A stretch of DNA of 64,000 bases, from contig CAYXQO010000003.1 of NCBI GenBank assembly GCA_964467475.1, positions 48,819 through 112,818 on the forward strand, read 5' to 3'. This document shows, one piece after another, positions 3,076 through 63,294 of this stretch. Under the pieces are notes generated by a model. That model had not been told where the DNA came from and did no database searches. It saw nothing but the letters and a program-made list of their open reading frames with translations. Position 1 is the stretch's first letter. Every line of letters begins with the position of its first letter. Position numbers and translations under genes: made by a program. The DNA comes from an uncultured Syntrophomonadaceae bacterium (GTDB lineage: Bacteria > Bacillota > Dethiobacteria > DTU022).

Positions 3076-4278
3076 TTATGAGTTTGTTCGAGAAAAAAGA
3101 TGTCTTAGTTTACCCAGGAAGCCTTTCTTTTCTTCTTCAGCAGTGCTTTCTTCTCTTTCTGCAGTTAAAGGCAGCAGTTTTTCGGCTATTGATACTACGC
3201 ACCGGGATGCAGGTGTGAGGGGGTTGTAGAGCACAAAAGGCCTAAATTGCTTGACCGATTTTACGACATTATCATCTTTGACAATGTGTCCGATTGTCTG
3301 GGGGGTTAAATCGAGGAAGCGGTCGGTTACATCAGTAAGTCTTGTAGATACTTTTTTAGCCTCAGTAAGATTCTCAACCAGGTTAAAGACAAGCTTTATA
3401 GGAGGCTGAAACTCATTTTTAGTAAGCACTTTAATTATAGCGTAGGCATCAGAAATCGAGTGCGGTTCAGGAGTAATAACTACTACAATTTCATCTGCTG
3501 CCATGGCAAATTCAACTACATTCCTGGATATCCCCGACCCGGTGTCAATCATGATGATATCGGCGTCTTCTTCAAGGGGTTTTAGCATGCTTACTATCCT
3601 GCCGAGTTCATCCTCGGGAAGCTCAGTCAGAGATTGTAGGCCCGATCCACCAGGAATAACTTGAACCCCTTCCGGTCCTTCAACTATAATATCCCTCAAA
3701 TTCATTTCCCTGTCCTCAACCAGGGTGTTTATAGTATATTTAGACTGTAGGCCCAACAAAACATCGACATTGGCGGTGCCCAGGTCAGCATCTAACAAGT
3801 ATACTTTTTGACCTCGCTGAGAAAGAGCAATGGCGGTATTGATCACAAAATTAGTTTTTCCGGTGCCTCCTTTGCCACTGGTTACTGCAATTACCTTGGG
3901 GCGTTTTTTCTTGTTGTCGCTTTGTTTTGGTTTATAGCCAGGGATTTTATCCTGGTTTTCTTTCTGGTTATTTAGTACTGCAACGTTTTCTTTTCCTGTT
4001 TCATTAATATTGTCTTTCATTTTTTTACCGGGTTTAAATGCAGGGACCCTGGCAGAAGGCACGGTGATCATCTCCTTGGTGTGCAGGTGCCGAATTCGTT
4101 TAAGAGAGCGTTCTTTTATCTTAAATGTTCCAAATCCTTTTATACTCACACTTTCTCCCCGGGCTAAGCTCTCGCCTATGGAGTTAATTGTGGCCTCTAC
4201 AATTTTTTTTGCTTCACGATTTGTAATGTTTGCTTTTTCAGCTGTTTTTTTTACCAGGTCATTTTTATTCATGTTCAT
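3076..4278 (-). CDS. Fusion protein with an N-terminal HU/IHF-like DNA-binding domain and a C-terminal MinD/FlhG-family P-loop ATPase
   Basis: Residues 1-90 resemble HU (NKNDLVKK...GFGTFKIKER...R.P.FKPGK). After a K/N-rich linker comes the deviant Walker A VTSGKGGTGKTNF and DADLG, very similar to FlhG at 47787. The ATG start has a GGGGG RBS. Confidence 0.75.
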   Translation of the reverse strand: MNMNKNDLVKKTAEKANITNREAKKIVEATINSIGESLARGESVSIKGFGTFKIKERSLKRIRHLHTKEMITVPSARVPAFKPGKKMKDNINETGKENVAVLNNQKENQDKIPGYKPKQSDNKKKRPKVIAVTSGKGGTGKTNFVINTAIALSQRGQKVYLLDADLGTANVDVLLGLQSKYTINTLVEDREMNLRDIIVEGPEGVQVIPGGSGLQSLTELPEDELGRIVSMLKPLEEDADIIMIDTGSGISRNVVEFAMAADEIVVVITPEPHSISDAYAIIKVLTKNEFQPPIKLVFNLVENLTEAKKVSTRLTDVTDRFLDLTPQTIGHIVKDDNVVKSVKQFRPFVLYNPLTPASRCVVSIAEKLLPLTAEREESTAEEEKKGFLGKLRHLFSRTNS

Positions 4279-14541: not shown

Positions 14542-15354
14542 TTGGCAAAAAAAGAAGCTCCGAAAACATTAAAACAAAAAAGGTGGGCGGCCATCGTTGC
14601 CGGTATTCTTGCTTTTGGGATGCTTGTTTCCGCCGTGGGGGCATATCTAGGCCAGGGTTTGGGCCAAGAAGGTGCCGTTTTGCCGGATCAGCAGGCGGAT
14701 CCTGAACCGGAAGATTATCTTGCACATTATGAAAGCGAAGTTGAAAGGTTGGAGAATTACCTGGAGGAACATGAACCTACCGCGGTGGTGCTGCGCGAGT
14801 TGGCCGAGAATTACCAGTTTTTAGTCTTTATAAAACAGGTTTACTTTGAAGATCAGGAATCGGTTCAGGAGTACAAGGAAAGAATGGTCTCGATTTACGA
14901 AACGCTGACTGAAAAAGAGCCGGATGAGCCTGAACACCGCTATGAATTGATTAACCTCTACCTGGAAACGCAAAAAGAAGAAGAGTTAGTTGATCGGGAA
15001 ATTGCTGTTTTGCTGGATATTCTGCGTGAAAATCCGGATCCCATGATCCATCTTTCCCTGGTGGAGACCCTTTCTGCCGCAGGGGAAGAAGAAAAAGTCC
15101 AGGAAGAAGTCAACTGGCTTAAGGATTATCTTGAAAAAAGAGTGTCCGAAGGGGCGGCGGATAATGAACAGCGTTATATTTATGCTGTCCTCTTAGGAGA
15201 ATTCCTGGAAGATCCCGGGACAGCCGAAGTTATATTAAAAGATATTTTAGATGAAGAAAGCGAAGGTAGCAGGTTGTACCAGGCCGCCAGTCAGTACCTT
15301 AGTTTTCTTGAGGCAGATGTCGATTATGAGGAAGACGAGGTCTTCATAGATTAA
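14542..15354 (+). CDS. Hypothetical membrane-anchored acidic helical-repeat protein
   Basis: An N-terminal TM segment followed by an acidic alpha-helical region. Confidence 0.4.
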   Translation: MAKKEAPKTLKQKRWAAIVAGILAFGMLVSAVGAYLGQGLGQEGAVLPDQQADPEPEDYLAHYESEVERLENYLEEHEPTAVVLRELAENYQFLVFIKQVYFEDQESVQEYKERMVSIYETLTEKEPDEPEHRYELINLYLETQKEEELVDREIAVLLDILRENPDPMIHLSLVETLSAAGEEEKVQEEVNWLKDYLEKRVSEGAADNEQRYIYAVLLGEFLEDPGTAEVILKDILDEESEGSRLYQAASQYLSFLEADVDYEEDEVFID

Positions 15355-16147: not shown

Positions 16148-16376
16148 AAAGCGCAGGGTGCTTATTCCAAAAATGCTAACATGAAGCGAACACATTGTGT
16201 TAGCAATTGCTAATTGTTTGTATGATCTGTATGTTAGTTTTTGGTGTGGTTCGGCAAAAAAGATAGATTAACCAGGGTAAAGAAGTGGTTCTAAGAAGGG
16301 AATAACCAGAATATGTAGAAATTAACATTGCAACTCAAAAATATTGCAGGAACCTCGGAAAGGCAGACGATTAGTG

Positions 16377-17939
16377 ATGAAAATAGCCGGTGATGGAGTA
16401 TACCGGGGAGAAACGTTAAATAACAAACCGCACGGCCGAGGAACTGTGACCTGGCCAGACGGCAGCCGGTACACCGGTGAATTTAAAAACGGGTATTTTC
16501 ATGGTGAAGGTACTTTTATATGGTCGCATGGCGACAAGTATGAAGGACAGTGGAAAGAAGACCGCATGCATGGGCGGGGCACCTACCTTTTTGCTGATTG
16601 GCGCAAATATGAAGGGCAATGGTGTGAAGACCAAATGCACGGGCTGGGCACTTATTATTGGCCCAGCGGGGAAAAATACGAGGGTGAATTTGTAAACGGC
16701 CATTATGAGGGCCACGGCACCTATTCCTGGCCAGATGGCAAATTGTATTCGGGAAAGTGGAAGAGATCTTGCCGCCACGGGGAAGGCAAAATGACCTGGC
16801 CTGATGGCAAAAGTTATTCCGGATGTTGGTTTGAAGACCTCAGGCATGGCTATGGAGAACAAGTCTGGCCCGACGGGCGTTCTTATGCTGGTGAGTGGAA
16901 AAGGAACCGGATGCATGGGCATGGTATCTACACATTTGCTGATGGTTCGCGCTATGAAGGTTTGTTCAAAGAAGGCAGTTTTGTCGACAAGGGAAAATTT
17001 TATTATCCCGACGGTTCCAGGTTCAAGGGTAAAATTTTCAACGGGCTTCCCCATGGCAAAGGAATCGTTTTGTTTTCCGATGGCAGCCAGTTCTACGGAA
17101 AGTTTGAGTACGGTTACGACATCGGGTGGGGAGAATGCTATTATTCTGACGGATCGAAATATATCGGTGAAAGCAAACAGAATTTACCCCATGGTGAGGG
17201 CAGGTTAAATTATCCGGATGGTTCTCGCTATGTAGGGATGTTTAAAAATGGAGTTCCCGATGATTCGGGAAGTTTCTTTTTTAACGATGGATCTCGTTTT
17301 GCCGGAGATATGAAGCATGGTCGTCCACACGGTCAGGGGAGAGTAACTTTTAGGGATGGATCGAATTACACGGGCGAATTTAGGAAAGGTTCTAGAGAGG
17401 GTAAAGGCCGACAAGCCTGGCCTGATGGTTCCGAATACGAGGGGGAATGGTTTGACGACCGAATCAGCGGCCAGGGAGTCTACTGTTCTGCTTCGGGAAA
17501 TCGCTACGAAGGGTATTTTTATAACAACCTACGTCATGGATGGGGCTGCCTGGAGCAGGCTGACGGAGCAGAATTTGAAGGGAACTGGAAAAATGGTAAA
17601 ATGCACGGCTATGGCCGCTGCCGGTTTGCCCGGGGTGGCTTATATGAAGGAGAATTTGCCGGTGGCAAGTTTCATGGTTGGGGCGTGAGAACCTGGGCTG
17701 CCGGCAGTATCTACAAGGGCCGCTGGTGGAAAGGATTAAGGCACAAGTACGGAACTTATTCGCCTGTTGTTGGTGATCAATACAATGGAGGATGGTTTTT
17801 GGACCGCTGTCACGGACACGGCCGCATAATAACCGGAGAAGTGTTTAAAAAGGGTTTTTGGTTTTTAGGTTTTGGACCGTTCAGGGTTACCGAAGAGCAC
17901 TTAGATTTCTCTTCTGAAGGCAACTTTTCTGAAAGCTAA
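16377..17939 (+). CDS. MORN-repeat protein (~22 tandem MORN repeats)
   Basis: The unit Y.G.W...K.HG.G is repeated throughout. The repeats also create ORF artefacts in other frames. Confidence 0.75.
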   Translation: MKIAGDGVYRGETLNNKPHGRGTVTWPDGSRYTGEFKNGYFHGEGTFIWSHGDKYEGQWKEDRMHGRGTYLFADWRKYEGQWCEDQMHGLGTYYWPSGEKYEGEFVNGHYEGHGTYSWPDGKLYSGKWKRSCRHGEGKMTWPDGKSYSGCWFEDLRHGYGEQVWPDGRSYAGEWKRNRMHGHGIYTFADGSRYEGLFKEGSFVDKGKFYYPDGSRFKGKIFNGLPHGKGIVLFSDGSQFYGKFEYGYDIGWGECYYSDGSKYIGESKQNLPHGEGRLNYPDGSRYVGMFKNGVPDDSGSFFFNDGSRFAGDMKHGRPHGQGRVTFRDGSNYTGEFRKGSREGKGRQAWPDGSEYEGEWFDDRISGQGVYCSASGNRYEGYFYNNLRHGWGCLEQADGAEFEGNWKNGKMHGYGRCRFARGGLYEGEFAGGKFHGWGVRTWAAGSIYKGRWWKGLRHKYGTYSPVVGDQYNGGWFLDRCHGHGRIITGEVFKKGFWFLGFGPFRVTEEHLDFSSEGNFSES

Positions 17940-26448: not shown

Positions 26449-26886
26449 GTGAAAAAAATTAACCGGGCACAACATGGCAAGACGGCAAAAACAAGTAATC
26501 AGGATAAGGCTGGCGAAAGAGGTTTGACTCGCTCAGTGGATGTCCTTGAACGCTTAAGCGTTGCTCTAAAAGAAGAAACGGCAGCAATTAACAATTTTGA
26601 TGATGAAAAGCTAAAAGAACATGGAGATATAATCCAGGCATTATTTGATGAGCTAACAGACTCTATGCCTTCTGCAAAAGATCTTTCTATTGATGAATCA
26701 AAAAACCTTTACGGCTTATTAAAGGATGTCAAACAGCACCGGGAAAAAAACCGGCAGCTCTTAGAGAAGTTGGTGAAAAATGCCGGGGAAAAAATCAATA
26801 AGCTTTCTGTGGGCAGACAAACTTTGCAAGCCTATAAAGGATTAAAACCAGATAAAGAAGAATTGTTTGTTAAGAAAAAATGCTGA
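26449..26886 (+). CDS. Hypothetical helical protein, possibly a FlgN/FliT-like flagellar chaperone (occupies the usual csrA slot)
   Basis: No CsrA motifs. Helical and K/E-rich. The start codon is uncertain. Confidence 0.35.
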   Translation: MKKINRAQHGKTAKTSNQDKAGERGLTRSVDVLERLSVALKEETAAINNFDDEKLKEHGDIIQALFDELTDSMPSAKDLSIDESKNLYGLLKDVKQHREKNRQLLEKLVKNAGEKINKLSVGRQTLQAYKGLKPDKEELFVKKKC

Positions 26887-40666: not shown

Positions 40667-41098
40667 ATGGCCGGCAGATCATGGGAAGAATACAGGCCTG
40701 TTTCCGGAGAAAGCACTGAAGAAACTAATCACTGGGAAGAGGCAACGGAGCAGGGGAAACCTGAAATAAAGAAAGTAGTCTTCCAACCGCTTTCTGAAAG
40801 TGAACCTGTTTCTCCCAGACGCGGTATTGCTTCGGAATTTCATGGTGTCAATTTGACTATAAGTGCTGAACTGGGAAAAGTCACCTTAAAGGTCCGTGAT
40901 TTAATAAATCTGGAAGAAGAATCAATCCTGCAGTTAAACCGGGTGGCCGATGAAAAAGTTTTAATTCTAGTCAATGAAACTCCCTTTGCACACGGCGAAA
41001 TAGTGGTGATTAACGACCGTTTCGGTGTAAGGATAACTTCTTTGGTAGATGAAGAAGAGAAAAGCACAGACGATTTTGATCCGGGGAAAGAGAGCTAA
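40667..41098 (+). CDS. FliN-domain (SpoA) protein, an extra FliN paralog at the ancestral fliN position
   Basis: C-terminal LNRVADEKVLILVNETPFAHGEIVVINDRFGVRITSLV is the FliN/SpoA signature. Confidence 0.75.
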   Translation: MAGRSWEEYRPVSGESTEETNHWEEATEQGKPEIKKVVFQPLSESEPVSPRRGIASEFHGVNLTISAELGKVTLKVRDLINLEEESILQLNRVADEKVLILVNETPFAHGEIVVINDRFGVRITSLVDEEEKSTDDFDPGKES

Positions 41099-43480: not shown

Positions 43481-44560
43481 TTGCTTTTCTTCTTCCAGGA
43501 TAGTGGCGAAAAAACAGAAGAACCTACGCCGCATCGATTGCGTGAAGCCCGCCGCAAGGGGCAGGTTTTCAAAAGCATGGAGCTTAATTCCGCGATCAAC
43601 ATTTTAGGGGTTATGCTTTTATTCACTATTTTTGGCACCCTGGCCCTTGGAGGGATTGAAGAAGCATTTAACTTGTTTGCACATGATATGCTTGCTTTCT
43701 CTCTTAATATGGAAAATGCTCATACCGTGCTTTGGGATGCGATCACCCGCTATTTTTCGATTATGGCCCCGGTGTTTGCAGTGGCCTTTATCCTGGGGAT
43801 AACAGCAAACCTGGTTCAGGTTGGTTTTTTAACTTCCACTCAGCAGATGGCGCCGCAGTTAAAACGGTTGAATCCCCTGGAAGGGGTCAAAAAAATTGCC
43901 TCCAAGAAAGCGCTATTTGAGATGGTCAAATCCATCTTGAAGATAGGGGTAATTAGCACGGTCGCTGTTTTGTTTATTTATAGCCGTTTGGACGAACTGC
44001 TGAAATTAATAAACCAGAGCGCTGCAGTTAGCCTGGGTGTTTTTTGGAATACAATTATTATGATGGGGCTTATAGTCGGGTTGGTATTTTTATTTATCGC
44101 TTTGCTCGACTATATATACCAGCGTTATGAGCACAAACAAAGCCTGAAAATGAGCCAAAAGGAAATAAAGGACGAACATAAGAACTTGGAAGGGGATCCC
44201 CTGATTCGTTCCAAGCTCAAGGAAAAACAACGCAAGCTGGCCCAGGAACGGATGATGCAGGATGTTCCCGATGCCGATGTTGTCATTACAAACCCTACGG
44301 AAATAGCTGTTGCCCTGGTTTACCGGGAAGGTCAGGACCAGGCACCACGGGTGGTAGCCAAGGGAGTGGAAGTATTGGCTCAAAAAATCAGGGAAATAGC
44401 CGGAGAACATGAAGTGCCGGTGGTGGAAAATCCTCCGGTAGCCCAAATCTTATGGAAGAAAACCGAGATTGGCGAGGAAATACCGATTGAATTGTACCAG
44501 GCGGTAGCCGAAATAATGGCCATGGTTTACCGTATGCGCGAGAAAAGAAGCTATATTTAG
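43481..44560 (+). CDS. flhB: Flagellar export apparatus protein FlhB
   Basis: N-terminal EKTEEPTPHRLREARRKGQV and an NPTE autocleavage motif. Confidence 0.9.
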   Translation: MLFFFQDSGEKTEEPTPHRLREARRKGQVFKSMELNSAINILGVMLLFTIFGTLALGGIEEAFNLFAHDMLAFSLNMENAHTVLWDAITRYFSIMAPVFAVAFILGITANLVQVGFLTSTQQMAPQLKRLNPLEGVKKIASKKALFEMVKSILKIGVISTVAVLFIYSRLDELLKLINQSAAVSLGVFWNTIIMMGLIVGLVFLFIALLDYIYQRYEHKQSLKMSQKEIKDEHKNLEGDPLIRSKLKEKQRKLAQERMMQDVPDADVVITNPTEIAVALVYREGQDQAPRVVAKGVEVLAQKIREIAGEHEVPVVENPPVAQILWKKTEIGEEIPIELYQAVAEIMAMVYRMREKRSYI

Positions 44561-51864: not shown

Positions 51865-52875
51865 GTGAGCAAAGACGCATTAACCCAATCGGAAATTGAC
51901 TCGTTAATCAATGCAATCTCAAGTGGGGATCTGGGAGAAGAAGAAACAACAGAAACAACTACTGAATACCAGACTTATGATTTTCGAAAGCCGACCAAGT
52001 TTACCAAAGAACAGCTTCGGACCCTGCAGATCATCCATGAAAACTATGCCCGGGTTATGGGCAACTTTCTTACTTCATTTTTGCGAGTTCCGGTGAAATT
52101 AAATGTTGTGTCTGTTGCCCAGGTTTCATACGAAGAATTCGTGTTTTCACTTCCTGTGCCAACTTTGATGACAATATTTAACATGTCCAAAGACATGGGT
52201 GTGGCTATGCTGGAAACCAACCCCACCTTTGTATTTACGATTATCGATCTTCTTTTTGGCGGGGAAGGAAGGCAACCGGGGAAAATACGGGAACTGACTG
52301 AAATTGAAATCTCGGTGATGAAACAGATTAACGAAAAATTTCTCGATAACCTTGGCTATGCCTGGAAAGGAATTGCCCAACTGGAACCGCAGATCGAAAG
52401 CATGGATACAAACCCTCAGTTCAACCAGGTAGTTGCCTCCAATGAGACCGTTGCTTTGATCACTTTCTCTGTTACGGTGCAAAATGTGCAGGGCTTTGTT
52501 AATCTTTGTTTTCCATTTATGGGACTGGAGCGCATTCTTTCCAGCCTTACCGCACAACAGTGGTTCAATCAGTTTCAACAAGCTGCTTCGCAGAACAAAC
52601 CCGGGGATATTGAAAAACGTTTGCGCGGTCCGGAAGCGGAAGTAAAGGTTGTGCTTGGCAAGTCCAGGATTACCCTTGATGATTTCTTGCAGCTGCAAGA
52701 AGGTGATGTTCTTCCCCTGCGCCGGCGTAGTGGAGAACCGCTGGAGCTATTGGTGGAAAATAAACCGATTTTTAAAGTTCAACCAGGAACCCGGGGCAAG
52801 AGAGTGGGGGTTAAGATTGTTGATTGGGTTTCCGATGATAAAGATATAGAAAAAACGGGGGATGACTATGGATAG
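51865..52875 (+). CDS. fliM: Flagellar motor switch protein FliM
   Basis: N-terminal LTQSEIDSLI (a CheY-P binding motif) and the FliM middle domain. Confidence 0.9.
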   Translation: MSKDALTQSEIDSLINAISSGDLGEEETTETTTEYQTYDFRKPTKFTKEQLRTLQIIHENYARVMGNFLTSFLRVPVKLNVVSVAQVSYEEFVFSLPVPTLMTIFNMSKDMGVAMLETNPTFVFTIIDLLFGGEGRQPGKIRELTEIEISVMKQINEKFLDNLGYAWKGIAQLEPQIESMDTNPQFNQVVASNETVALITFSVTVQNVQGFVNLCFPFMGLERILSSLTAQQWFNQFQQAASQNKPGDIEKRLRGPEAEVKVVLGKSRITLDDFLQLQEGDVLPLRRRSGEPLELLVENKPIFKVQPGTRGKRVGVKIVDWVSDDKDIEKTGDDYG

Positions 52876-53212
52876 CCGGCATATATTGTCAGAAGAAGAA
52901 ATGAACGCCTTGCTTAACGAGGATTCGAATCGTGAAGATGAGCTGAAGATGGATCTAAAGCTCAAACTGGTTCTCGATTTTCCCCTGGAGGTTTCTGTCC
53001 GTCTTGGCAAAGCGGAGAGAACAATTGGGCAGTTGCTCAATTTGACTGTGGGGACAGTTATTGAGCTCGACAAAATGATTGAAGAACCGGTTGAATTAAT
53101 GGTTAACGGCAAAACTTTTGCTGAAGGTGAAGTGATCACAATTGATGAGACCTTCGGGATACGTCTGAAAAATATTATTAAACCGGAGGAACGAATTGAA
53201 ACCTTGCGTTAA
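52862..53212 (+). CDS. fliN: Flagellar motor switch protein FliN
   Basis: SpoA domain, 116 aa. Confidence 0.85.
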   Translation: MTMDSRHILSEEEMNALLNEDSNREDELKMDLKLKLVLDFPLEVSVRLGKAERTIGQLLNLTVGTVIELDKMIEEPVELMVNGKTFAEGEVITIDETFGIRLKNIIKPEERIETLR

Positions 53213-53236: not shown

Positions 53237-55000
53237 GTGGAAGATTTAAGTGCGCTTGAAAAAGACACCCTGGCCGAGGTGGGAAATATATCTCTTGGTG
53301 CTTCTGCTACTGCCCTGTCGACCATCCTTGATAAATTTGTGGATATAACCACACCACAGCTTTCAATTTTTGATGGTAGCGAGGTCAGTCAAAAGTATCC
53401 TATACCTTGTCTTTTGGTAGAGGTGGAATATACCTCGGGACTACAGGGCAGCAATATCTTGCTGATCAAAGAACAGGATGCCGTGGTCATTGCCGCCCTG
53501 ATGATGGGTGAAGATCCTAAAGATAAAAAAGGACCGCTAAGCGAAATTGAGATGAGTGCCGTCCAAGAGGCAATGAATCAGATGATGGGTTCGATGGCTA
53601 CCTCCATGTCAGAGCTGTTCCAGCGAACCATTGAGCTATCCACCCCCAATATTGATCTGATTAACCTGGCTGAGGAGAAGCCCGAGCATGAGTCGTTATC
53701 TTCTGAAGGAAAAGTCGTCCATGTCCAATTTTCGATGCAGGTTGATGATATTATTGACAGCATTATGGTCCAGGTAATCCCGCTTGATTTTGCCCGGGAA
53801 ATGTGCTCTCACCTTTTATCAGGCGGTGCAGAAACGGCTTCTGCTCCGGAGGAACAAACTACTTCCGGGCCGGAGGCAGTAGCTGACATCCCTGGTGTTG
53901 ATCAAGATGGTGAGGAGGAAGATTACGGAATTGAAACGGTGTCAATTGATACCGGTAAAAAAGAAGCGGTGCCCGAGACAGAATCGGAAGAATTAAGCGA
54001 TCTGGAAAAAGATACGGTGGCGGAAGTGGGCAATATTTCCCTGGGGGCTTCAGCGACAGCTCTTTCGACGATCCTTGACAAATCAGTTGATATAACTACT
54101 CCACAATTGGACATCCGGAAAGTAAACGAAATTCAAGAAAAATACCCGGTTCCGTGTTTGCTGGTAAAAGTAGAATATATTTCGGGATTAGAAGGCAGTA
54201 ACGTTTTAATGATCAAGGAAAATGATGCTTTAATTATTGCTGCCTTAATGATGGGTGAAGATCCGGAGACCAAGGAAGGGCCGTTAAGTGAAATAGAATT
54301 GAGCGCAGTCCAGGAAGCAATGAACCAGATGATGGGTTCTATGGCTACTTCAATGTCTGAGCTTTTCCAAAGGACTATCGAGATTTCTACTCCTGTCCTT
54401 GAGTCAATTGATCTTTCTACCGGCCTGCCGCAGCTGTACGATTTTGATCATGATGATAATGTGGTGCACGTAGAATTCAACATGAAAATAGCGGATGTCA
54501 TCGATAGTGTCATGATCCAGGTGATTCCAGTCAAGTTTGCCAAGAAAATGGCTGGGTACCTTCTTTATGGAGAAAGCGATCCGGAATCAGCACCGGTGGA
54601 AACCACTGAAGATACGGAAATGTCTCCCGAACCGGAGCCTGGGCCTCCGGAAATGGCATCTCAACCGGAAACGGAAGAAAGCGAGTCACCTGCAGGAATG
54701 CCTGAAACTACCGAGGTTGCGGGAAAAATGGCGGTTGATATGCAAAAGTTGAATTTGGTTAAAGACATTCCAATGGATATTGTAGTGGTGCTTGGTTCAG
54801 CGAGGGTTCCACTGGGTCAGCTTTTTTCCATGGATAAGGGAGGTATTGTCGAACTTGATTGTAATGTTAATGACCCGGTCGAAATTTTGGCAAATGATAA
54901 GCTTTTAGCGAGGGGAGAAGTAGTGATGATCAACGATCAACTGGGTGTCAGGATAACTGAAATTCAGTTCGAAGAAGTTATTGAAAGCTACGGTATATAA
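53237..55000 (+). CDS. fliY: FliY-type switch protein with two tandem CheC-like domains and a C-terminal FliN domain
   Basis: EVGNISLGASATALS..(D/E) CheC motifs occur twice, followed by a SpoA C-terminus. Confidence 0.85.
   Translation: MEDLSALEKDTLAEVGNISLGASATALSTILDKFVDITTPQLSIFDGSEVSQKYPIPCLLVEVEYTSGLQGSNILLIKEQDAVVIAALMMGEDPKDKKGPLSEIEMSAVQEAMNQMMGSMATSMSELFQRTIELSTPNIDLINLAEEKPEHESLSSEGKVVHVQFSMQVDDIIDSIMVQVIPLDFAREMCSHLLSGGAETASAPEEQTTSGPEAVADIPGVDQDGEEEDYGIETVSIDTGKKEAVPETESEELSDLEKDTVAEVGNISLGASATALSTILDKSVDITTPQLDIRKVNEIQEKYPVPCLLVKVEYISGLEGSNVLMIKENDALIIAALMMGEDPETKEGPLSEIELSAVQEAMNQMMGSMATSMSELFQRTIEISTPVLESIDLSTGLPQLYDFDHDDNVVHVEFNMKIADVIDSVMIQVIPVKFAKKMAGYLLYGESDPESAPVETTEDTEMSPEPEPGPPEMASQPETEESESPAGMPETTEVAGKMAVDMQKLNLVKDIPMDIVVVLGSARVPLGQLFSMDKGGIVELDCNVNDPVEILANDKLLARGEVVMINDQLGVRITEIQFEEVIESYGI
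53246..54580 (+). repeat. Intragenic tandem duplication (~585 nt units with a 750 nt period) encoding two CheC-like domains
   Basis: Protein segments 4-197 and 254-447 are ~70% identical. The nucleotide copies are diverged to roughly 75%. Confidence 0.75.
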
Positions 55001-55032
55001 ACAACCAGGTTTATATGCAGGGAGGTAATAAA

Positions 55033-57183
55033 ATGGATATCAGTCAATATGCTGAGCTTTTCCAGGCTGAAGCCGGGGAGTATATGCAGGTGTTAAACCA
55101 GTGTTTGCTTAATTTAGAAAAAAATCCTAAAAATCAGGAAGAGCTTCACGAAGCATTTCGAGTGGCGCACAGTTTAAAAGGCATGGCCGGGACAATGGGC
55201 TATCAGCATGTAACCAATATCGCTCACGGACTTGAAAATTTTATGGAAGATTTTAAAAGTCTTGAACGAGAACCAGGCCCGGAAATAATCGATCTTATAT
55301 TTGAAGCGGTTGACTTGTTGCAAGAAGCACTTGAAACTCCCGACCAATCTACAGAAGAAGATCAACGGAAGTGGGATCAGCTTTTAGCCAGGATGAAACA
55401 GGCAAAAGATGATGGGCCCTCGGGTAATGCTTCGGAAGAAGCTGCAGCAGAGAACATGGAAGATCTTTTTGACCTTGGTCCTATGGATCAGGAAGTACTC
55501 AGGCAGGCGGAAGAACAGGGCAGCAATCCCTGTGTAGTTGAAATAGAATTAAAAGAGGACACCTTGATGAAATCTGTCCGGGTGCATATGATTATTAAAG
55601 GAATCGAGGAATTTGCCGAAATAGTTAAAACTGTTCCTCCACAACAAAATTTAGAAGAAGAAGAGTTTGAACAATCTTTCCGGGTGCTTTTAATCCTGGA
55701 AGCAGGGGAACCCGAAGAATTAAAAGAAAAGATTTTACAGATAACCGATGTTGAAAATGTAAATATCAATTTATGGAATAGCGAAGGAAAAGCAGATGGT
55801 TCAGAGAGCTTTTTGGAAGATAAAGATGTAGAAACTGAGGAAGAACCCGGCGAACAAATCGAGAGACCTAATGAAACGAAAAGTCTTGTAGAGGATAAAA
55901 AACAGCCTGCAACAGAAGAGCTGGATAAAGAAAAGGCCTCCAGTGATAATAAAAAATCTGCTGCTTCAAGCGGAGAGCAGGGGCAGGTATCCAAGGCTGT
56001 TGATAAAATGGTCAGGGTTGAAACTCAAAAGCTGGATGACCTGGTAAACCTGGTTGGTGAAATGGTGGTAGCAAGGACCAGGATTACTGAAATAGGACAT
56101 GGTTTCAATGAAGACCTTGACAGTACTATTGATCAGCTAAAACGCTCTATTACAAACTTACAGGATACAGCCATGGAATTGCGCATGGTTCCAATTGACC
56201 AGGTTTTTGGACGCTTCCCCCGGATGGTCCGGGATTTGTGCCGGGAAAAGGGCAAACAAGTACAACTTCATATCAGCGGAGAGGAAACCGAGCTTGACCG
56301 CTCCATAATTAACCGGCTTTCCGATCCCCTGGTGCACCTGCTGCGCAATGCTTTTGACCACGGTATTGAAACTCCGGAGAAGCGAAAAGAAAAGGGCAAA
56401 AATCCCGAAGGATCTATTTACTTAAATGCCCGTCATGAGGGAAACCAGGTAGTTATAACTGTTGAAGATGACGGTGGAGGGATAGATCCTCAAAAAATAG
56501 GTGAACTGGCGATTCAAAGAGGGGTGATTACGGAAGAGGAAAAGAAACAGCTGAGCAAGGACGATTTGGTCAGCCTAATATTTTTCAGTGGATTCAGCAC
56601 TTCTGAGGAGATTACTGATGTTTCGGGCAGGGGGGTAGGAATGGATGCAGTTAGGAACAGTATCGAAGCTTTGCACGGAACGGTTGAAGTTAACAGTGAA
56701 GTTGGTGTGATGACCCGTTTCGAAATCCGTCTTCCTTTAACCCTGGCGATCATAACTACGCTGCTGGTGAAATCTAATAATCAGCTTTATGCTATTCCTG
56801 TAGAAGTGATCCGGGAAAACGTTTATCTTGATGCAAAGGAAATAAAATCGATACGCGGAAATCCTGTGGTTAATCTCAGAGGGGAAGTGATTCCACTTCA
56901 TACTCTTAGCAGTTTACTTGGTTTTGAACTAAACGAAATGCCGGATGAGGAGTGCTCGGTGGTTATTGTAGAGGCGTCTAACCGCAAGGCCGGTTTTATC
57001 GTCGATGAACTGGTTGGCCAGGAAGAAATAATGATCAAATCGTTGGGCAGTTTGCTTAAGGGATTAAAAGGAATTGCCGGTGCTACGGTTCTTGGGGACG
57101 GCAGTGTAACTTTAATTATAGATGTGGCAGGTCTTTTAAGCGAAGGGAGGGATTATGTTGAGCAAAACAGTATTGGTGGTTGA
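55033..57183 (+). CDS. cheA: Chemotaxis histidine kinase CheA
   Basis: HPt motif HSLKGMAG, HATPase domain and a C-terminal CheW-like domain. Confidence 0.9.
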   Translation: MDISQYAELFQAEAGEYMQVLNQCLLNLEKNPKNQEELHEAFRVAHSLKGMAGTMGYQHVTNIAHGLENFMEDFKSLEREPGPEIIDLIFEAVDLLQEALETPDQSTEEDQRKWDQLLARMKQAKDDGPSGNASEEAAAENMEDLFDLGPMDQEVLRQAEEQGSNPCVVEIELKEDTLMKSVRVHMIIKGIEEFAEIVKTVPPQQNLEEEEFEQSFRVLLILEAGEPEELKEKILQITDVENVNINLWNSEGKADGSESFLEDKDVETEEEPGEQIERPNETKSLVEDKKQPATEELDKEKASSDNKKSAASSGEQGQVSKAVDKMVRVETQKLDDLVNLVGEMVVARTRITEIGHGFNEDLDSTIDQLKRSITNLQDTAMELRMVPIDQVFGRFPRMVRDLCREKGKQVQLHISGEETELDRSIINRLSDPLVHLLRNAFDHGIETPEKRKEKGKNPEGSIYLNARHEGNQVVITVEDDGGGIDPQKIGELAIQRGVITEEEKKQLSKDDLVSLIFFSGFSTSEEITDVSGRGVGMDAVRNSIEALHGTVEVNSEVGVMTRFEIRLPLTLAIITTLLVKSNNQLYAIPVEVIRENVYLDAKEIKSIRGNPVVNLRGEVIPLHTLSSLLGFELNEMPDEECSVVIVEASNRKAGFIVDELVGQEEIMIKSLGSLLKGLKGIAGATVLGDGSVTLIIDVAGLLSEGRDYVEQNSIGG

Positions 57184-57520
57184 TGACACTGCTTTTATGA
57201 GGATGACTCTAAAGAGTATGCTGGAAAAAAATGGTTATGAGGTAGTAGGTGAAGGTGAAGATGGTGTGAGGGGAGTGGAACTATTTAAGGAATTGAAGCC
57301 ATCCCTGGTGACAATGGATATTACCATGCCTAACAAAGATGGGATTACAGCTATAAAAGAAATTATGGAATATGATCCTAATGCAATGGTTATAGTTGTC
57401 AGCGCTATGGGACAAAAAAGCTTAGTAATAGAAGCCTTAAATGCCGGAGCCAAAGATTTTGTGGTCAAACCCTTCCAGCCGGATCGGATAGCGGAAGCTT
57501 TGGCTAAGTTAGAGGGATAA
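57155..57520 (+). CDS. cheY: Chemotaxis response regulator CheY
   Basis: A single REC domain of 121 aa. Confidence 0.8.
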   Translation: MLSKTVLVVDDTAFMRMTLKSMLEKNGYEVVGEGEDGVRGVELFKELKPSLVTMDITMPNKDGITAIKEIMEYDPNAMVIVVSAMGQKSLVIEALNAGAKDFVVKPFQPDRIAEALAKLEG

Positions 57521-57563
57521 AAACTATAACAATAGTTTGTCTTATCCGACGCGGAGGTTTTAA

Positions 57564-58052
57564 ATGGAAACAGTACACGTTAAAATAGCTGATCTGGCAG
57601 TGAAAAAAGACAGTGGGGTTTTGGTTACATTCGGTCTTGGATCTTGTATCGGGATAGCCCTTTATGACCATAATGTAAAAGTAGGTGGGCTTGCCCATAT
57701 TTTGTTAAATGACAGCAGTAAATTTAAGCGGCCCAGTTCCGGAGATGTGAACCCGGCAAAATTTGCCGATACCGCTATTCCTCATATGATCGACCAAATG
57801 GTTACCATTGGAGCCAGGAAAAACAATATTGTAGCCCAAATAGCCGGTGGGGCCAGCCTGTTTAATTTTCAAAATGAATCAGGCAATGTAGGATTTAAAA
57901 ATATTGAGGCAGTACGCAATGTTTTGAAGGAGCAGGGGATTAAAATTATCAGTGCAGAAGTGGGTGGCAAATGTGGCAGAACCATGCGTCTGTTTGTTGA
58001 TTCAGGGGAGGTAAAAATAACAACAGTTGGTGAAGGAGCCGTGAAGAAGTGA
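57564..58052 (+). CDS. cheD: Chemoreceptor glutamine deamidase CheD
   Basis: CheD family with GLGSCIG. Confidence 0.85.
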   Translation: METVHVKIADLAVKKDSGVLVTFGLGSCIGIALYDHNVKVGGLAHILLNDSSKFKRPSSGDVNPAKFADTAIPHMIDQMVTIGARKNNIVAQIAGGASLFNFQNESGNVGFKNIEAVRNVLKEQGIKIISAEVGGKCGRTMRLFVDSGEVKITTVGEGAVKK

Positions 58053-59936: not shown

Positions 59937-59983
59937 CCCTGTAACTTCCGTTCCAGTTGCCGATAAATATAGTGGAGGTAATA

Positions 59984-60808
59984 ATGGTGGGGAAGTACAG
60001 GTTTAAAGTAGTTATATATACGTTAGCTGCAGCCCTCTTTTTACTCGCTCTCGCCGGAGATGGTACAGATTTACTTAATTATTTTTGGGAAGAGCGACCT
60101 GAGAGGACTGTGGAAACGGCTTTTGAGGTTACTTCTGTGCGCACCGAAAGAGTGCTCATGGAAGGGACTGAATGGGAAACTGTTCTTTATAAAATAAGTT
60201 CGCCAACTGAAGGTCCTACGGTGATGATCATTGGCGGTATTCATGGTAATGAACCGGCCGGTTTCAAGGCAGCGGACACTATGAAAAACTGGGCGATCGA
60301 CCGGGGCACCCTGCTGGTATTACCCAGGGCAAATGTTCCGGCCATCGAAGCAAGATCCAGGAGAGCCCCGAGTGATGGGCTTGATTTAAACCGCACTTTC
60401 CCGGGGGATGCCGATGGAACGGGAACTGAAATTATGGCCTCTGTCATTGTTTCGCTGATGGAAGAATTTGAGCCTGACTGGGTTATTGATCTTCACGAGG
60501 CCTCTAATTTTGAAAGAAATGTACCGGGTTCCCTGGGACAGACATTAATCTATCCGAGAAATGCTGATGCATTAGATGTAGTAGAGAAATTAAAAAAAGC
60601 AGTAAACCGGACTATATTAAATAAAGACCATCACTTTTTGATTATTCGCGGTGGTACCACGGGCACCTTGATTAATGAAGCTCATACTAGCGGTTATGAG
60701 GCGATCATTACTGAGACGGTTACAAAAATGCCCATGGAAGATCGCATTCATTTTCAACAACAAATAGTGACTTCGCTATTATATATCCTTGGGATTACTA
60801 TCTATTAA
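59984..60808 (+). CDS. Secreted M14-like zinc carboxypeptidase (succinylglutamate desuccinylase/aspartoacylase family)
   Basis: Signal peptide. GGIHGNEPAG and DLNRTFPG zinc-ligand motifs. Confidence 0.65.
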   Translation: MVGKYRFKVVIYTLAAALFLLALAGDGTDLLNYFWEERPERTVETAFEVTSVRTERVLMEGTEWETVLYKISSPTEGPTVMIIGGIHGNEPAGFKAADTMKNWAIDRGTLLVLPRANVPAIEARSRRAPSDGLDLNRTFPGDADGTGTEIMASVIVSLMEEFEPDWVIDLHEASNFERNVPGSLGQTLIYPRNADALDVVEKLKKAVNRTILNKDHHFLIIRGGTTGTLINEAHTSGYEAIITETVTKMPMEDRIHFQQQIVTSLLYILGITIY

Positions 60809-60853
60809 TAGATAGTAGTTAAATAGCCGGGATTTTTTAAAGGGACAGGGAGA

Positions 60854-61582
60854 GTGAGCCGTTTGGATAGCAGTTTTTTAACCGCTTTATTCCGTGATCC
60901 GGTATTAAACCGGCTTACCGCAAGTAAGCCTTCCGGGTCGGTCGGTAGCGGTGCCAGGATGCCGGAATCCCTGGTGGCAAAAGTCACTGCCCTCAAAGGC
61001 GAAGCTGCGGTTTTACGCTGGGAAGGGGGAACTTTTGCTGCTCTGCTAAACGCCGAAACAACCCCGGGTGAAAAACTTTTCTTAAAATATAACGGGATGA
61101 AAGAAGGCAAGCCCCATTACCGGATTATGGCTCGCATACCCGGGAGCAACACTGCTGAAAATAATATTTTGCCCAACCGTATGGAAGCGGGAGAATCATT
61201 TTTATTTGCGTTAATGCCCGGGGTGGCCGGGAGGCAAGGAGCCCGCCCGGCCCTGGTTCGATTTACTCCAAGGGATGAAAAACGCAAGCCGGCAAATAAT
61301 CAGCCGGAACCACTAATTGAATTATTTTTGGATACAGAACGATTTGGTCTTATTTTGGTCCGTTTTTTTTATCAACAAGGCAAAAATATTGAGTGCCGTT
61401 TTGTGGTAGAATCCAGGGAAGCCGGCCGAGATCTCCAGGGTGAGGCGGAGCGCTTTATTGATGAGACGGGGGGTTCCGGACAAGCCGGAGACACGCCGTT
61501 GAAGTGGTCGGTTGGTAATTTACGCAAGAAGGCAGCAGAGGTTTTGCATCATGGGGGTTATGGAATAAACAAGAAAGCTTAG
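60854..61582 (+). CDS. Hypothetical protein, possibly with a FliK-like C-terminal domain
   Basis: Weak resemblance of PEPLIELFLDTERFGLILVRF to the Flg_hook motif. Positioned upstream of the FlhB-C-like gene. Confidence 0.35.
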   Translation: MSRLDSSFLTALFRDPVLNRLTASKPSGSVGSGARMPESLVAKVTALKGEAAVLRWEGGTFAALLNAETTPGEKLFLKYNGMKEGKPHYRIMARIPGSNTAENNILPNRMEAGESFLFALMPGVAGRQGARPALVRFTPRDEKRKPANNQPEPLIELFLDTERFGLILVRFFYQQGKNIECRFVVESREAGRDLQGEAERFIDETGGSGQAGDTPLKWSVGNLRKKAAEVLHHGGYGINKKA

Positions 61583-61593
61583 AGGGGATTCAA

Positions 61594-61890
61594 GTGGAAG
61601 AGAATAATTCCAAAAACAGGCGTATTGATGAACTTCGCCGGGCAATCGCTTTGCAGTACGATCCAAATAAAAATGAAGCACCCAGTGTTACAGCCAGCGG
61701 CCGGGGGTGGTTAGCTGAACGCATAATTCAGCTGGCCAATGATAACAGCGTTCCTATAATCGAGGACAACGCCCTGGCTAAAGCGCTTGGTGATTTACCC
61801 CTGGGGGAGGAGGTGCCGCAGGAGCTTTATGAGGCTGTAGCGGCAATTTATGCGTTTATTATAGAAGCAGATCAACGGACGGGTTACTAG
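61594..61890 (+). CDS. FlhB C-terminal domain-like small protein (EscU/YscU/HrcU family, YlqH-like)
   Basis: 98 aa homologous to the FlhB cytoplasmic domain. Confidence 0.7.
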   Translation: MEENNSKNRRIDELRRAIALQYDPNKNEAPSVTASGRGWLAERIIQLANDNSVPIIEDNALAKALGDLPLGEEVPQELYEAVAAIYAFIIEADQRTGY

Positions 61891-62082
61891 TAATTATCCG
61901 CCGGAGGTTTTGCTATTGGTATAGAGGAATTACCTGGTTAACTGGCGAATTATTATGCCACCGTGTTTAAGGAATCAGGCTTTAATACCCTGGCCTGGCA
62001 AAAGCCTGGAGCATTAACTTAATTAAGCCTGTTTTTTATCGCCGGGAGAGAAAGCCGGGGTTTTGGACAAGGGGGATTATCG

Positions 62083-63294
62083 TTGGAAATTTTCGTGGCC
62101 AGACAACCTATATTTGACAGGCGCCAAAAAGTTTATGCTTATGAATTACTGTACCGAGCCGGGAAAGAAAATTATAACCCTGTTACAAACGGTGATCTGG
62201 CTACTTCTGAGGTTATCGTCAATAGTTTTCTGGACCTCGGTCTAGACAAATTAACCAGGAGGAAGAGAGCTTTTATTAACTTCAGTAACCAGCTGCTTAA
62301 CAATAAAACAGCATTGCTGCTGCCGAAAGAACTAATCGCGGTAGAAGTGACCAGGGAGATCGAGTCAGACCAGGAAACTATTGAGGCTTGTAAAGAACTC
62401 AAGAAAAAAGGTTACATGATGGTCCTTGATGATTATAACCACGATGCTGAAAATAAAAGGATTGTCGATATTGCTGATTTTATCAAAGTGGACTACCAGG
62501 AAACCGGGACAGCAGAGCGTGAAAAAATTGTCAATTACTTCAAAGGCAGCAAGAAAAAACTAATTGCGGAAAAGGTAGAAAATGTAAAAGACTATGGCGA
62601 TGCAATGGCAAATGGGTATGATTTTTTCCAGGGATACTTTTTTTGTGAGCCAACAGTGGTGGCAGGCAGGGAAATACCCGGTGCCAAGCTGCAAAACCTC
62701 CGCTTACTCCAGGAGATTTATAAACCGGAGATGGATTTTGACCAGATTGAAGCTTTGATTAAGCAAGATCCCTCCCTTTCCTATAAATTGTTGCGTTTTA
62801 TCAATTCTGTAGCATTTCCGCTTCGCTTCCCAATTCGTTCAATCCGCCAAGCTATAGCCCTGTTAGGACAAAAAGAAATGATCAAATGGTCTTCCCTGGT
62901 GGCCTTACGCGGTGTTGGGTATGATAAACCGGATGAATTGATTGTTACTGCTGTAGCCAGGGCAAAATTTTGCGAATCGATGGCAAAAGCCACCGATTTA
63001 CAAGACCGTAGTGCTGATTTATTTTTAACCGGGATGTTCTCGCTTCTCGATACATTTCTTGATCAACCTATGGAGAATGTCCTCGCGGAATTGCCGCTGG
63101 CAGACGAGATAAAAAGTGCCCTCAGTGGAGAACCGGGACCGTTTCGTGATATTTTAGACCTGGTGCTGCTTTATGAAAAGGGAAACTGGGAGAAAGCCTT
63201 TACCATAGCATCAGAAAAGTATGGCCTTGATGAAGTGGAAATGATGTCTTATTATCTCGAATCACTTGAGCTGGCAGATATGGTATGGAAATAA
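62083..63294 (+). CDS. EAL-like plus HDOD domain protein (EAL motif reads ELL)
   Basis: N-terminal EAL fold (QPIFD...YELLYR). C-terminal HDOD (LLRFINS...). TTG start behind AGGGGGA. Confidence 0.7.
   Translation: MEIFVARQPIFDRRQKVYAYELLYRAGKENYNPVTNGDLATSEVIVNSFLDLGLDKLTRRKRAFINFSNQLLNNKTALLLPKELIAVEVTREIESDQETIEACKELKKKGYMMVLDDYNHDAENKRIVDIADFIKVDYQETGTAEREKIVNYFKGSKKKLIAEKVENVKDYGDAMANGYDFFQGYFFCEPTVVAGREIPGAKLQNLRLLQEIYKPEMDFDQIEALIKQDPSLSYKLLRFINSVAFPLRFPIRSIRQAIALLGQKEMIKWSSLVALRGVGYDKPDELIVTAVARAKFCESMAKATDLQDRSADLFLTGMFSLLDTFLDQPMENVLAELPLADEIKSALSGEPGPFRDILDLVLLYEKGNWEKAFTIASEKYGLDEVEMMSYYLESLELADMVWK

Follow-up and report, generated by a model that had tools for sequence, protein, structure and literature searches.

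Tandem duplication of the CheC-like phosphatase domain in the FliY protein of a soda-lake Bacillota clade

A doubled catalytic domain in a soda-lake FliY

The window (the whole 64-kb stretch of DNA analysed here) holds a full flagellar and chemotaxis cluster, within which fliY encodes a protein with two CheC-like phosphatase modules arranged in tandem ahead of a FliN/SpoA domain. The analysis shows the architecture of this protein, its fold, the conservation of its motifs, its gene context, and how old the duplication is and where it falls in the phylogeny. Jointly, they are best explained by a C-ring FliY of soda-lake Bacillota with a tandem-duplicated catalytic domain and, as we propose, four CheY-P phosphatase sites, a reading that we regard as likely. 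The comparative analysis further suggests that the FliY phosphatase domain has been multiplied repeatedly across the Bacillota, with different fates for the additional copies.

Gene call and domain layout

The fliY gene (53237..55000, + strand, as are all features described below; 587 aa) is an intact open reading frame with a GTG start codon and a AGGAAGGA Shine-Dalgarno sequence a few bases 5' of the start, and the same product has been called by JGI in a metagenome (P0001; 100% identity and coverage). Its identification as FliY in the first-pass annotation was borne out by the NCBIfam FliY model NF005995/PRK08119, which the whole protein matches with 566 bits against a cutoff of 218. Our own module HMM recovered module 1 (aa 1-197; 53237..53827) and module 2 (aa 250-447; 53984..54577) with 413 and 415 bits, respectively.

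Each module is followed by an acidic linker, as the annotation had described, and both linkers are predicted to be disordered. Linker 1 (aa 198-249; 53828..53983) spans 52 residues and linker 2 (aa 448-506; 54578..54754), which is also rich in proline (10 P), spans 59; both contain 16 D/E and 2 K/R residues. Among members of the clade, linker 1 is between 11 and 53 aa long. The FliN/SpoA domain likewise anticipated after the modules, and here assigned as a predicted C-ring anchor, occupies the C-terminus (aa 507-587; 54755..54997), where PF01052 matches aa 507-576 (E = 9.6e-21) and the PDB structures of FliN 1O6A/1YAB are matched with E = 1e-16.

Pfam searches returned four CheC stretches, in addition to FliMN_C at aa 507-576. 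Since the CheC model is short and covers one pseudo-symmetric half of the domain at a time, these four stretches amount to two complete CheC-like domains. A gapless BLASTP self-alignment of aa 2-208 with aa 251-457 (207 aa, 67% identity, 84% positives, E = 1e-99) and the four Pfam stretches together substantiate the intragenic tandem duplication of the CheC-like phosphatase domain that had been read from the gene, and the peptide motifs quoted for it are present in the translation. The BLASTP results also reveal remaining homology between the first ~10 residues of linker 2 and the beginning of linker 1.

Divergence and age of the two modules

At the DNA level the two copies lie at an offset of 747 nt, close to the 750-nt period initially put forward. 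Their nucleotide identity reaches 74% over the best 256 nt and falls to 65.5% over all 621 aligned nt. Tandem Repeats Finder reported nothing on fliY, its longest period of 500 nt being shorter than the 747-nt offset. Codon-level comparison of the two modules yielded a pN of 0.20 and a pS of 0.84, which is saturated, with an identity of 39% at third codon positions. The saturation of pS against a pN of 0.20 indicates that the duplication is ancient and that both copies have since evolved under purifying selection. The orthologues of module 1 and of module 2 are equally conserved (mean pairwise identity of 0.68 and 0.69), and the identity between modules within proteins (0.638) is marginally higher than that between proteins (0.624).

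The description of the modules as near-identical hence holds for the existence of two modules, but not for their near-identity, given a protein identity of 67%, a DNA identity of 65% and saturated synonymous sites. The recent duplication that this description implied is contradicted by the saturation of synonymous sites and by the presence of the two-module form in approximately 40 orthologues, down to 53% identity. The idea that the repeat was falsely expanded during assembly can be given almost no credence: the presence of a repeat is all that speaks for it, 34% of nucleotides and 61% of third codon positions are different between the copies, and dozens of assemblies made independently, from NCBI, JGI, ENA and Logan, contain the same two-module gene. 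A collapsed or expanded assembly repeat was thus ruled out by the divergence of the copies, without read mapping.

Conservation of fold and active-site motifs

The sequence of module 2 aligns to the Thermotoga maritima FliY structure 4HYN with E = 6e-35, with both E..N pairs aligned. An AlphaFold2 model of FliY, built from 41 homologues, gave each module a pLDDT of ~90 and each linker one below 50. Foldseek searches with the whole model returned T. maritima FliY 4HYN as the best PDB match (TM 0.90, rmsd 2.1 Å, E = 1e-17), followed by CheC, FliM middle domains and CheX. The modules therefore adopt, in the AlphaFold2 model and its Foldseek matches, the alpha/beta catalytic fold of the CheC/CheX/FliY type.

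The active-site motif of the CheC family, (D/S)x3Ex2Nx22P, was located by regular expression at all four half-sites of FliY, two per module, and its conservation was scored across 41 aligned two-module proteins, that of Bacillus cereus among them. In module 1, the first motif (D10-x3-E14-x2-N17-x22-P40; 53264..53356) has invariant E14, N17 and P40 among these 41 sequences, and the second (S107-x3-E111-x2-N114-x22-P137; 53555..53647) has invariant S107, E111 and P137, with N114 conserved in at least 90% of sequences. In module 2, all four residues of the third motif (D259-x3-E263-x2-N266-x22-P289; 54011..54103) are invariant, as are S356, E360 and N363 in the fourth (S356-x3-E360-x2-N363-x22-P386; 54302..54394), where P386 is conserved in at least 90%. 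The same four motifs are found in nearly all of the ~40 two-module orthologues of the clade. This conservation argues, without amounting to proof, that all four predicted sites are functional. The doubling of phosphatase capacity is accordingly a reasonable expectation for a protein in which both modules keep both active-site motifs.

Extra modules are not always kept as enzymes, as evidenced by the loss of motifs from N-terminal copies in other lineages. The motif has disappeared from the N-terminal copy of four proteins (P0071, P0073, P0074 and P0076), and one or both motifs have been lost from module 1 of the three-module proteins P0041-P0054. These degenerate modules, together with the FliM middle domain, which appears among the Foldseek matches with the same fold and has no activity, lend some substance to the notion that one of the window modules serves without catalysis as a structural part or spacer, for instance extending the reach of the other module or adding mass to the C-ring, much like the FliM middle domain itself or the degenerate first modules of other multi-module FliY proteins. 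We nonetheless consider such a role unlikely for the window protein, in which the catalytic Glu and Asn and their flanking residues have remained near-invariant in both modules across ~40 orthologues in spite of saturated synonymous divergence.

Phylogenetic history of the modules

Modules were cut from 120 homologues and aligned, and neighbour-joining trees were inferred with 200 bootstraps. Modules 1 and 2 of the window clade group with each other, apart from those of single-module relatives (181/200 bootstraps), and cluster further with the single-module FliY proteins of Dethiobacteria type (176/200), whose one module is 56-57% identical to both window modules. Within the clade, each window module has the corresponding module of the nearest relative (P0002) as its partner, in 197/200 bootstraps for module 1 and in 199/200 for module 2. 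The joint grouping of the clade modules and their module-wise pairing with P0002 indicate one duplication near the base of the clade, after the split from single-module relatives, although more than one early event or gene conversion is also possible. The basal split into module-1 and module-2 clades is weakly supported (4 and 22 of 200), which may reflect either a short stem or some gene conversion. The comparison with the FliY of relatives that had been suggested as a means to date the duplication hence places it near the base of the soda-lake clade.

The module tree also bears on the possibility that a stand-alone cheC gene became joined to the start of fliY, instead of a FliY domain being duplicated. 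Apart from the lack of cheC at its normal position in the clade, the evidence runs against such a fusion. Identity amounts to 67% between the two modules and to 56-57% with the one FliY module of relatives, but to just 24-27% with the CheC of the neighbouring sister lineage, and in the tree both modules fall into a single clade inside the FliY modules (181/200). We rejected the fusion, which is extremely improbable on the basis of the module tree and of the low identity to CheC.

The tree indicates separate duplications for the B. cereus group (163/200), P0050 (196/200), P0065 (200/200) and P0066 (187/200), and the neighbour-joining tree without bootstrap points to additional ones. The modules of Listeria and Ectobacillus were not placed in the module tree. 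The better supported reading is that the FliY phosphatase domain underwent at least five independent duplications or triplications in the lineages tested by bootstrap, and more if untested multi-module groups are counted. It is likewise better supported that the fate of the extra copy varies, appearing fully conserved in some lineages and degenerate in others. No description of this repeated multiplication of FliY modules with differing fates was found in the searchable literature.

Distribution of multi-module FliY proteins

Approximately 40 orthologues with 53-76% identity to the window FliY, from NCBI, JGI, ENA and Logan assemblies, present the same two modules. Among genome records, those nearest to the window are MAGs from soda-lake sediment that bear the label Syntrophomonadaceae, and a partial match (P0042) is labelled Dethiobacteria, the group to which the closest named relatives belong. 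Among 80 GTDB species-representative loci, 65 carry one module, 15 carry two and one, from Ectobacillus ponti, carries three; the two-module loci belong to soda-lake MAGs, seven species of the B. cereus group and two Listeria species. Three-module proteins of ~800 aa are also present in uncultured Bacillota. A scan of 1.84 billion representative proteins returned 354 clusters at E <= 1e-30. Among the best 150 of these 354 clusters, ~25 have two-module and ~5 have three-module representatives, one of which stands for the whole window clade.

The unusualness implied for the window protein is therefore not upheld, given that the B. cereus group, Listeria, Ectobacillus and numerous uncultured Bacillota also have FliY proteins with two or three modules. 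Judged from these sequences, the doubled FliY is a genuine yet fairly ordinary variant, whose layout already exists in reference genomes. No paper discussing two-module FliY was found in the searchable literature, and a recent paper describes the chemotaxis proteins of B. cereus as little known (PMC12848376). The pathogens B. cereus and Listeria are among the Bacillota with a multiplied FliY phosphatase domain. The pattern of multiplication should be of modest interest to those working on the flagellar motor; the single gene matters little.

Gene context and CheY docking peptides

The local gene order in the window is flgG-flgG-fliM-fliN(116 aa)-fliY-cheA-cheY-cheD-cheB-cheR, which places fliY in a flagellar and chemotaxis operon beside fliM, as expected for a member of the FliY family. 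Upstream of fliY lie fliM (51865..52875; 336 aa; PF02154 E = 2.6e-54, TIGR01397 295 bits) and a fliN encoding a 116-aa protein with a SpoA domain (52862..53212; PF01052 E = 9.6e-23, TIGR02480 85.3 bits with the cutoff at 84.05), and just 24 nt separate the fliN stop codon from the fliY start. Downstream, cheA (55015..57183) encodes Hpt, P2, H-kinase_dim, HATPase_c and CheW domains and is followed by cheY (57155..57520; Response_reg E = 2.2e-30), the presumed substrate once phosphorylated, and, 43 nt after it, by cheD (57564..58052; PF03975 E = 4.1e-31). The order fliM-fliN-fliY-cheA-cheY-cheD is conserved in seven other loci of the clade, and the 116-aa fliN is also present in relatives. The window encodes a second FliN paralogue besides the 116-aa protein.

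An N-terminal EIDAL-type peptide for binding CheY-P is typical of FliY, as in Bacillus subtilis, yet not universal. In the window, no such peptide was found at the N-terminus of FliY, which starts directly at helix alpha1 (MEDLSALEKDTLAEVGN). The N-terminus of FliM contains the CheY-binding motif LTQSEIDSLI, and that of the 116-aa FliN contains the EIDAL-like peptide ILSEEEMNALL.

Absence of cheC from the cheY-cheD junction in the window clade

The absence of a separate cheC from the che block, pointed out in the first-pass annotation, extends to the entire 64-kb window, where the module HMM, run against six-frame open reading frames, detected no CheC-like frame besides FliY and, weakly, FliM. 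The same HMM does pick up stand-alone CheC in other loci (48 bits). In the window and in seven other two-module loci (L001, L002, L003, L005, L007, L087 and L088), cheC is absent and cheY leads straight into cheD. The single-module relatives that share the operon (L081/L082 and L011) carry cheC between cheY and cheD, with a product of 199 aa in L081. The loci of relatives were viewed with flanks of 6-10 kb on either side, and the comparison was made without the single-module loci L089 and L090, in which the che operon lies beyond the retrieved flank. Loss of cheC from the cheY-cheD junction hence appears to be a feature of the clade, mapping to the same stem branch as the FliY duplication. This makes the clade a clean natural comparison, in which sister lineages with one module and cheC can be set against two modules and no cheC.

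The co-occurrence of both changes invites an explanation in terms of sub-functionalisation, in which one FliY module took on the role that CheC has as a binding partner of CheD and in the feedback of CheY-P levels to the receptors. Such a takeover would have allowed the loss of cheC and moved the adaptation loop to the motor, with a motor-tethered module assuming the binding of CheD and the feedback among CheC, CheD and CheY-P relocating to the flagellar switch. In line with this explanation, cheY directly precedes cheD, without any CheC-like frame, in every clade locus that spans the junction; relatives with one module and the same operon order hold cheC at that very position (L081/L082, L011); and cheD, whose product in B. 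subtilis depends on CheC binding for its main role (PMC3513319), has been retained in the clade.

The wider comparison goes against it. Five independent multi-module lineages preserve cheC beside cheD, between cheY and cheD: one with three modules (L083), two with two modules (L084 and L085) and two with two modules of which the first is degenerate (L091 and L092). Because these lineages retain the gene, cheC loss is not a general consequence of extra modules, and the notion that additional FliY modules generally replace CheC was rejected; the link hinted at between a doubled FliY and a missing cheC is thus specific to the clade. In the clade itself, full catalytic motifs are present in both modules, which show equal conservation and no sign of divergence toward a new partner, and the CheC of the sister lineage is just 24-27% identical to either module. 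A cheC gene may also lie elsewhere in these genomes, the view here comprising 64 kb, or 6-10 kb to each side in relatives. We hence regard this explanation as unlikely, both for the assumption of the CheC role by one FliY module and for the relocation of the feedback to the switch. Independent multiplication of the FliY domain is better supported than the replacement of CheC at CheD by one of its modules.

Proposed mechanism

The history that we consider likely would start from an ancestral single-module FliY, composed of a CheC-like domain, a linker and a FliN/SpoA domain. One in-frame tandem duplication, encompassing the catalytic domain and the start of its linker, would have taken place at the base of the clade. 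In the resulting protein, the C-terminal SpoA domain would anchor FliY at the C-ring base, alongside FliM and the FliN paralogues, and the two CheC-like domains would hang from it, swinging on the flexible acidic linkers. Each CheC-like domain is expected to dephosphorylate CheY-P at two pseudo-symmetric Glu/Asn sites, providing four sites per polypeptide instead of two.

With FliY devoid of an EIDAL-type peptide and both FliM and the 116-aa FliN bearing one, CheY-P would presumably be concentrated near FliY by the EIDAL-like N-termini of these two neighbours. Several features reported for the T. maritima protein fit this model: both of its sites are reportedly active, its N-terminal peptide is said not to be needed for activity, and the protein reportedly dimerises through its C-terminal domain. 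The catalytic activity of all four sites, the C-ring location and the recruitment route are the predicted components of the model. FliY acts as the main CheY-P phosphatase of B. subtilis, where CheC has ~6% of the activity of FliY (PMC3513319).

Comparison with known systems

The window protein shares with the FliY of B. subtilis and T. maritima (PRK08119; 4HYN) a CheC-like catalytic domain in which two E-x2-N sites are arranged pseudo-symmetrically, a C-terminal FliN/SpoA domain and the location of its gene beside fliM in a flagellar operon, and its function can be inferred from these two proteins. It differs from them in having two catalytic domains instead of one and in lacking the N-terminal EIDAL-type peptide, which is found instead on the separate 116-aa FliN. 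The window FliY also coexists with two FliN paralogues, whereas FliN and FliY are described as excluding each other in most bacteria (PMC6946799).

The closest match in layout is the two-module FliY of the B. cereus group and Listeria (NF005275/PRK06782; represented here by P0113 and by loci L009-L015, L017 and L023), with which the window protein shares the order CheC-like, CheC-like, SpoA. It aligns end to end with the PRK06782 profile (aa 4-576 on profile positions 7-515 of 516), but its score of 451.7 bits falls short of the family's cutoff of 681. The B. cereus protein, too, retains all four motifs. The B. cereus and Listeria proteins are, however, just 32-35% identical to the window FliY, and the B. 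cereus protein carries an N-terminal extension of ~19 aa. The duplication in B. cereus appears to be a separate event and not one of shared origin, its modules 1 and 2 pairing with each other in 163/200 bootstraps.

The three-module FliY proteins of ~800 aa (P0041-P0054, P0063 and the E. ponti locus L016) follow the same building principle one step further; in P0041-P0054, the first of the three modules is highly diverged, with 23-34% identity to the other two. Stand-alone CheC, the class I protein that partners with CheD (T. maritima 1XKR/2F9Z), has the same fold as the window modules (TM 0.72-0.76). Whereas CheC is a soluble partner of CheD in a stand-alone form of ~200 aa, the window modules are tethered to a SpoA motor domain within a 587-aa protein, which scores 128.7 against the cutoff of 250 of the CheC model NF041093. 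Outside the Bacteria, the CheC3 protein of Halobacterium consists of two CheC domains (PMC3579733), and this archaeal protein thus resembles the window FliY in the doubling of the domain.

Short FliN-like gene upstream of fliY

The gene encoding a FliN of 116 aa (FliN-116; window 52862-53212, plus strand) overlaps the 3' end of fliM by 14 nt at its start. The N-terminus of this protein, ILSEEEMNALL, constitutes a putative EIDAL-like CheY-binding motif, which is absent, in contrast, from the window FliY. Judged by its sequence, FliN-116 looks like a FliY devoid of the catalytic domain. A short FliN-like gene (93-133 aa) occupies the same position in all related loci examined, among which the N-terminal EIDAL-like motif was read in L001, a member of the two-module clade of the window.

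FliY proteins with three modules

Three CheC-like modules were identified in the FliY of a group of homologues (P0041-P0054; e.g. positions 10001-12409 of L083, a locus keeping cheC) and of Ectobacillus ponti (L016, 5980-8208), these proteins spanning ~740-860 aa. In P0041-P0054, module 1 is strongly diverged and has lost the catalytic motif in part or whole. For the E. ponti FliY, our module HMM returned similar scores for all three modules (215-225 bits).

Chemotaxis genes and the region downstream of cheR

The cheY-cheD junction (window 57520-57564) was compared with that of L081 (13437-14036), a single-module relative with cheC. Sister lineages sharing this operon carry a cheC of 199-205 aa between cheY and cheD, whereas the window lacks cheC there and cheD begins 43 nt past cheY. 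Similarly, several relatives place cheW between fliY and cheA; the window has no cheW at that position, and no CheW-only gene was found in its 64 kb.

Past cheR lies a plus-strand gene set (window 59957-63294) encoding a Peptidase_M99-like AstE/AspA-like protein, a 242-aa protein (60854-61582) without a Pfam match and, at 62083-63294, an EAL+HDOD protein. These genes are conserved as a set, also adjoining the flagellar cluster in L087 and L088 (two-module clade) and in the single-module relatives L089 and L090. A 98-aa protein consisting solely of the FlhB C-terminal domain (61594-61890, plus strand) is encoded in addition to full-length flhB (43481-44560), and its gene is likewise kept 3' of cheR in L087 and L088.

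Other ORFs in the window

A 400-aa protein (window 3076-4278, minus strand) is a fusion of two domains, HU-type DNA-binding (aa 3-92) and ParA/MinD-like ATPase (aa 128-366), and 13 MORN repeats account for nearly the whole length of a 531-aa protein (16344-17939, plus strand). Two plus-strand ORFs lack Pfam matches: one of 270 aa (14542-15354) and one of 145 aa (26449-26886), the latter directly past fliW, at the expected csrA position.

SpoA-domain proteins of the flagellar cluster

A second FliN-like SpoA gene (143 aa, FliN-143; window 40667-41098, plus strand; PF01052, E = 3.5e-21) is flanked by fliL and fliO. The cluster hence encodes four SpoA-domain proteins (FliM, FliN-116, FliN-143 and FliY), an unusual complement given that FliN and FliY have been reported to be mutually exclusive in most bacteria (PMC6946799).
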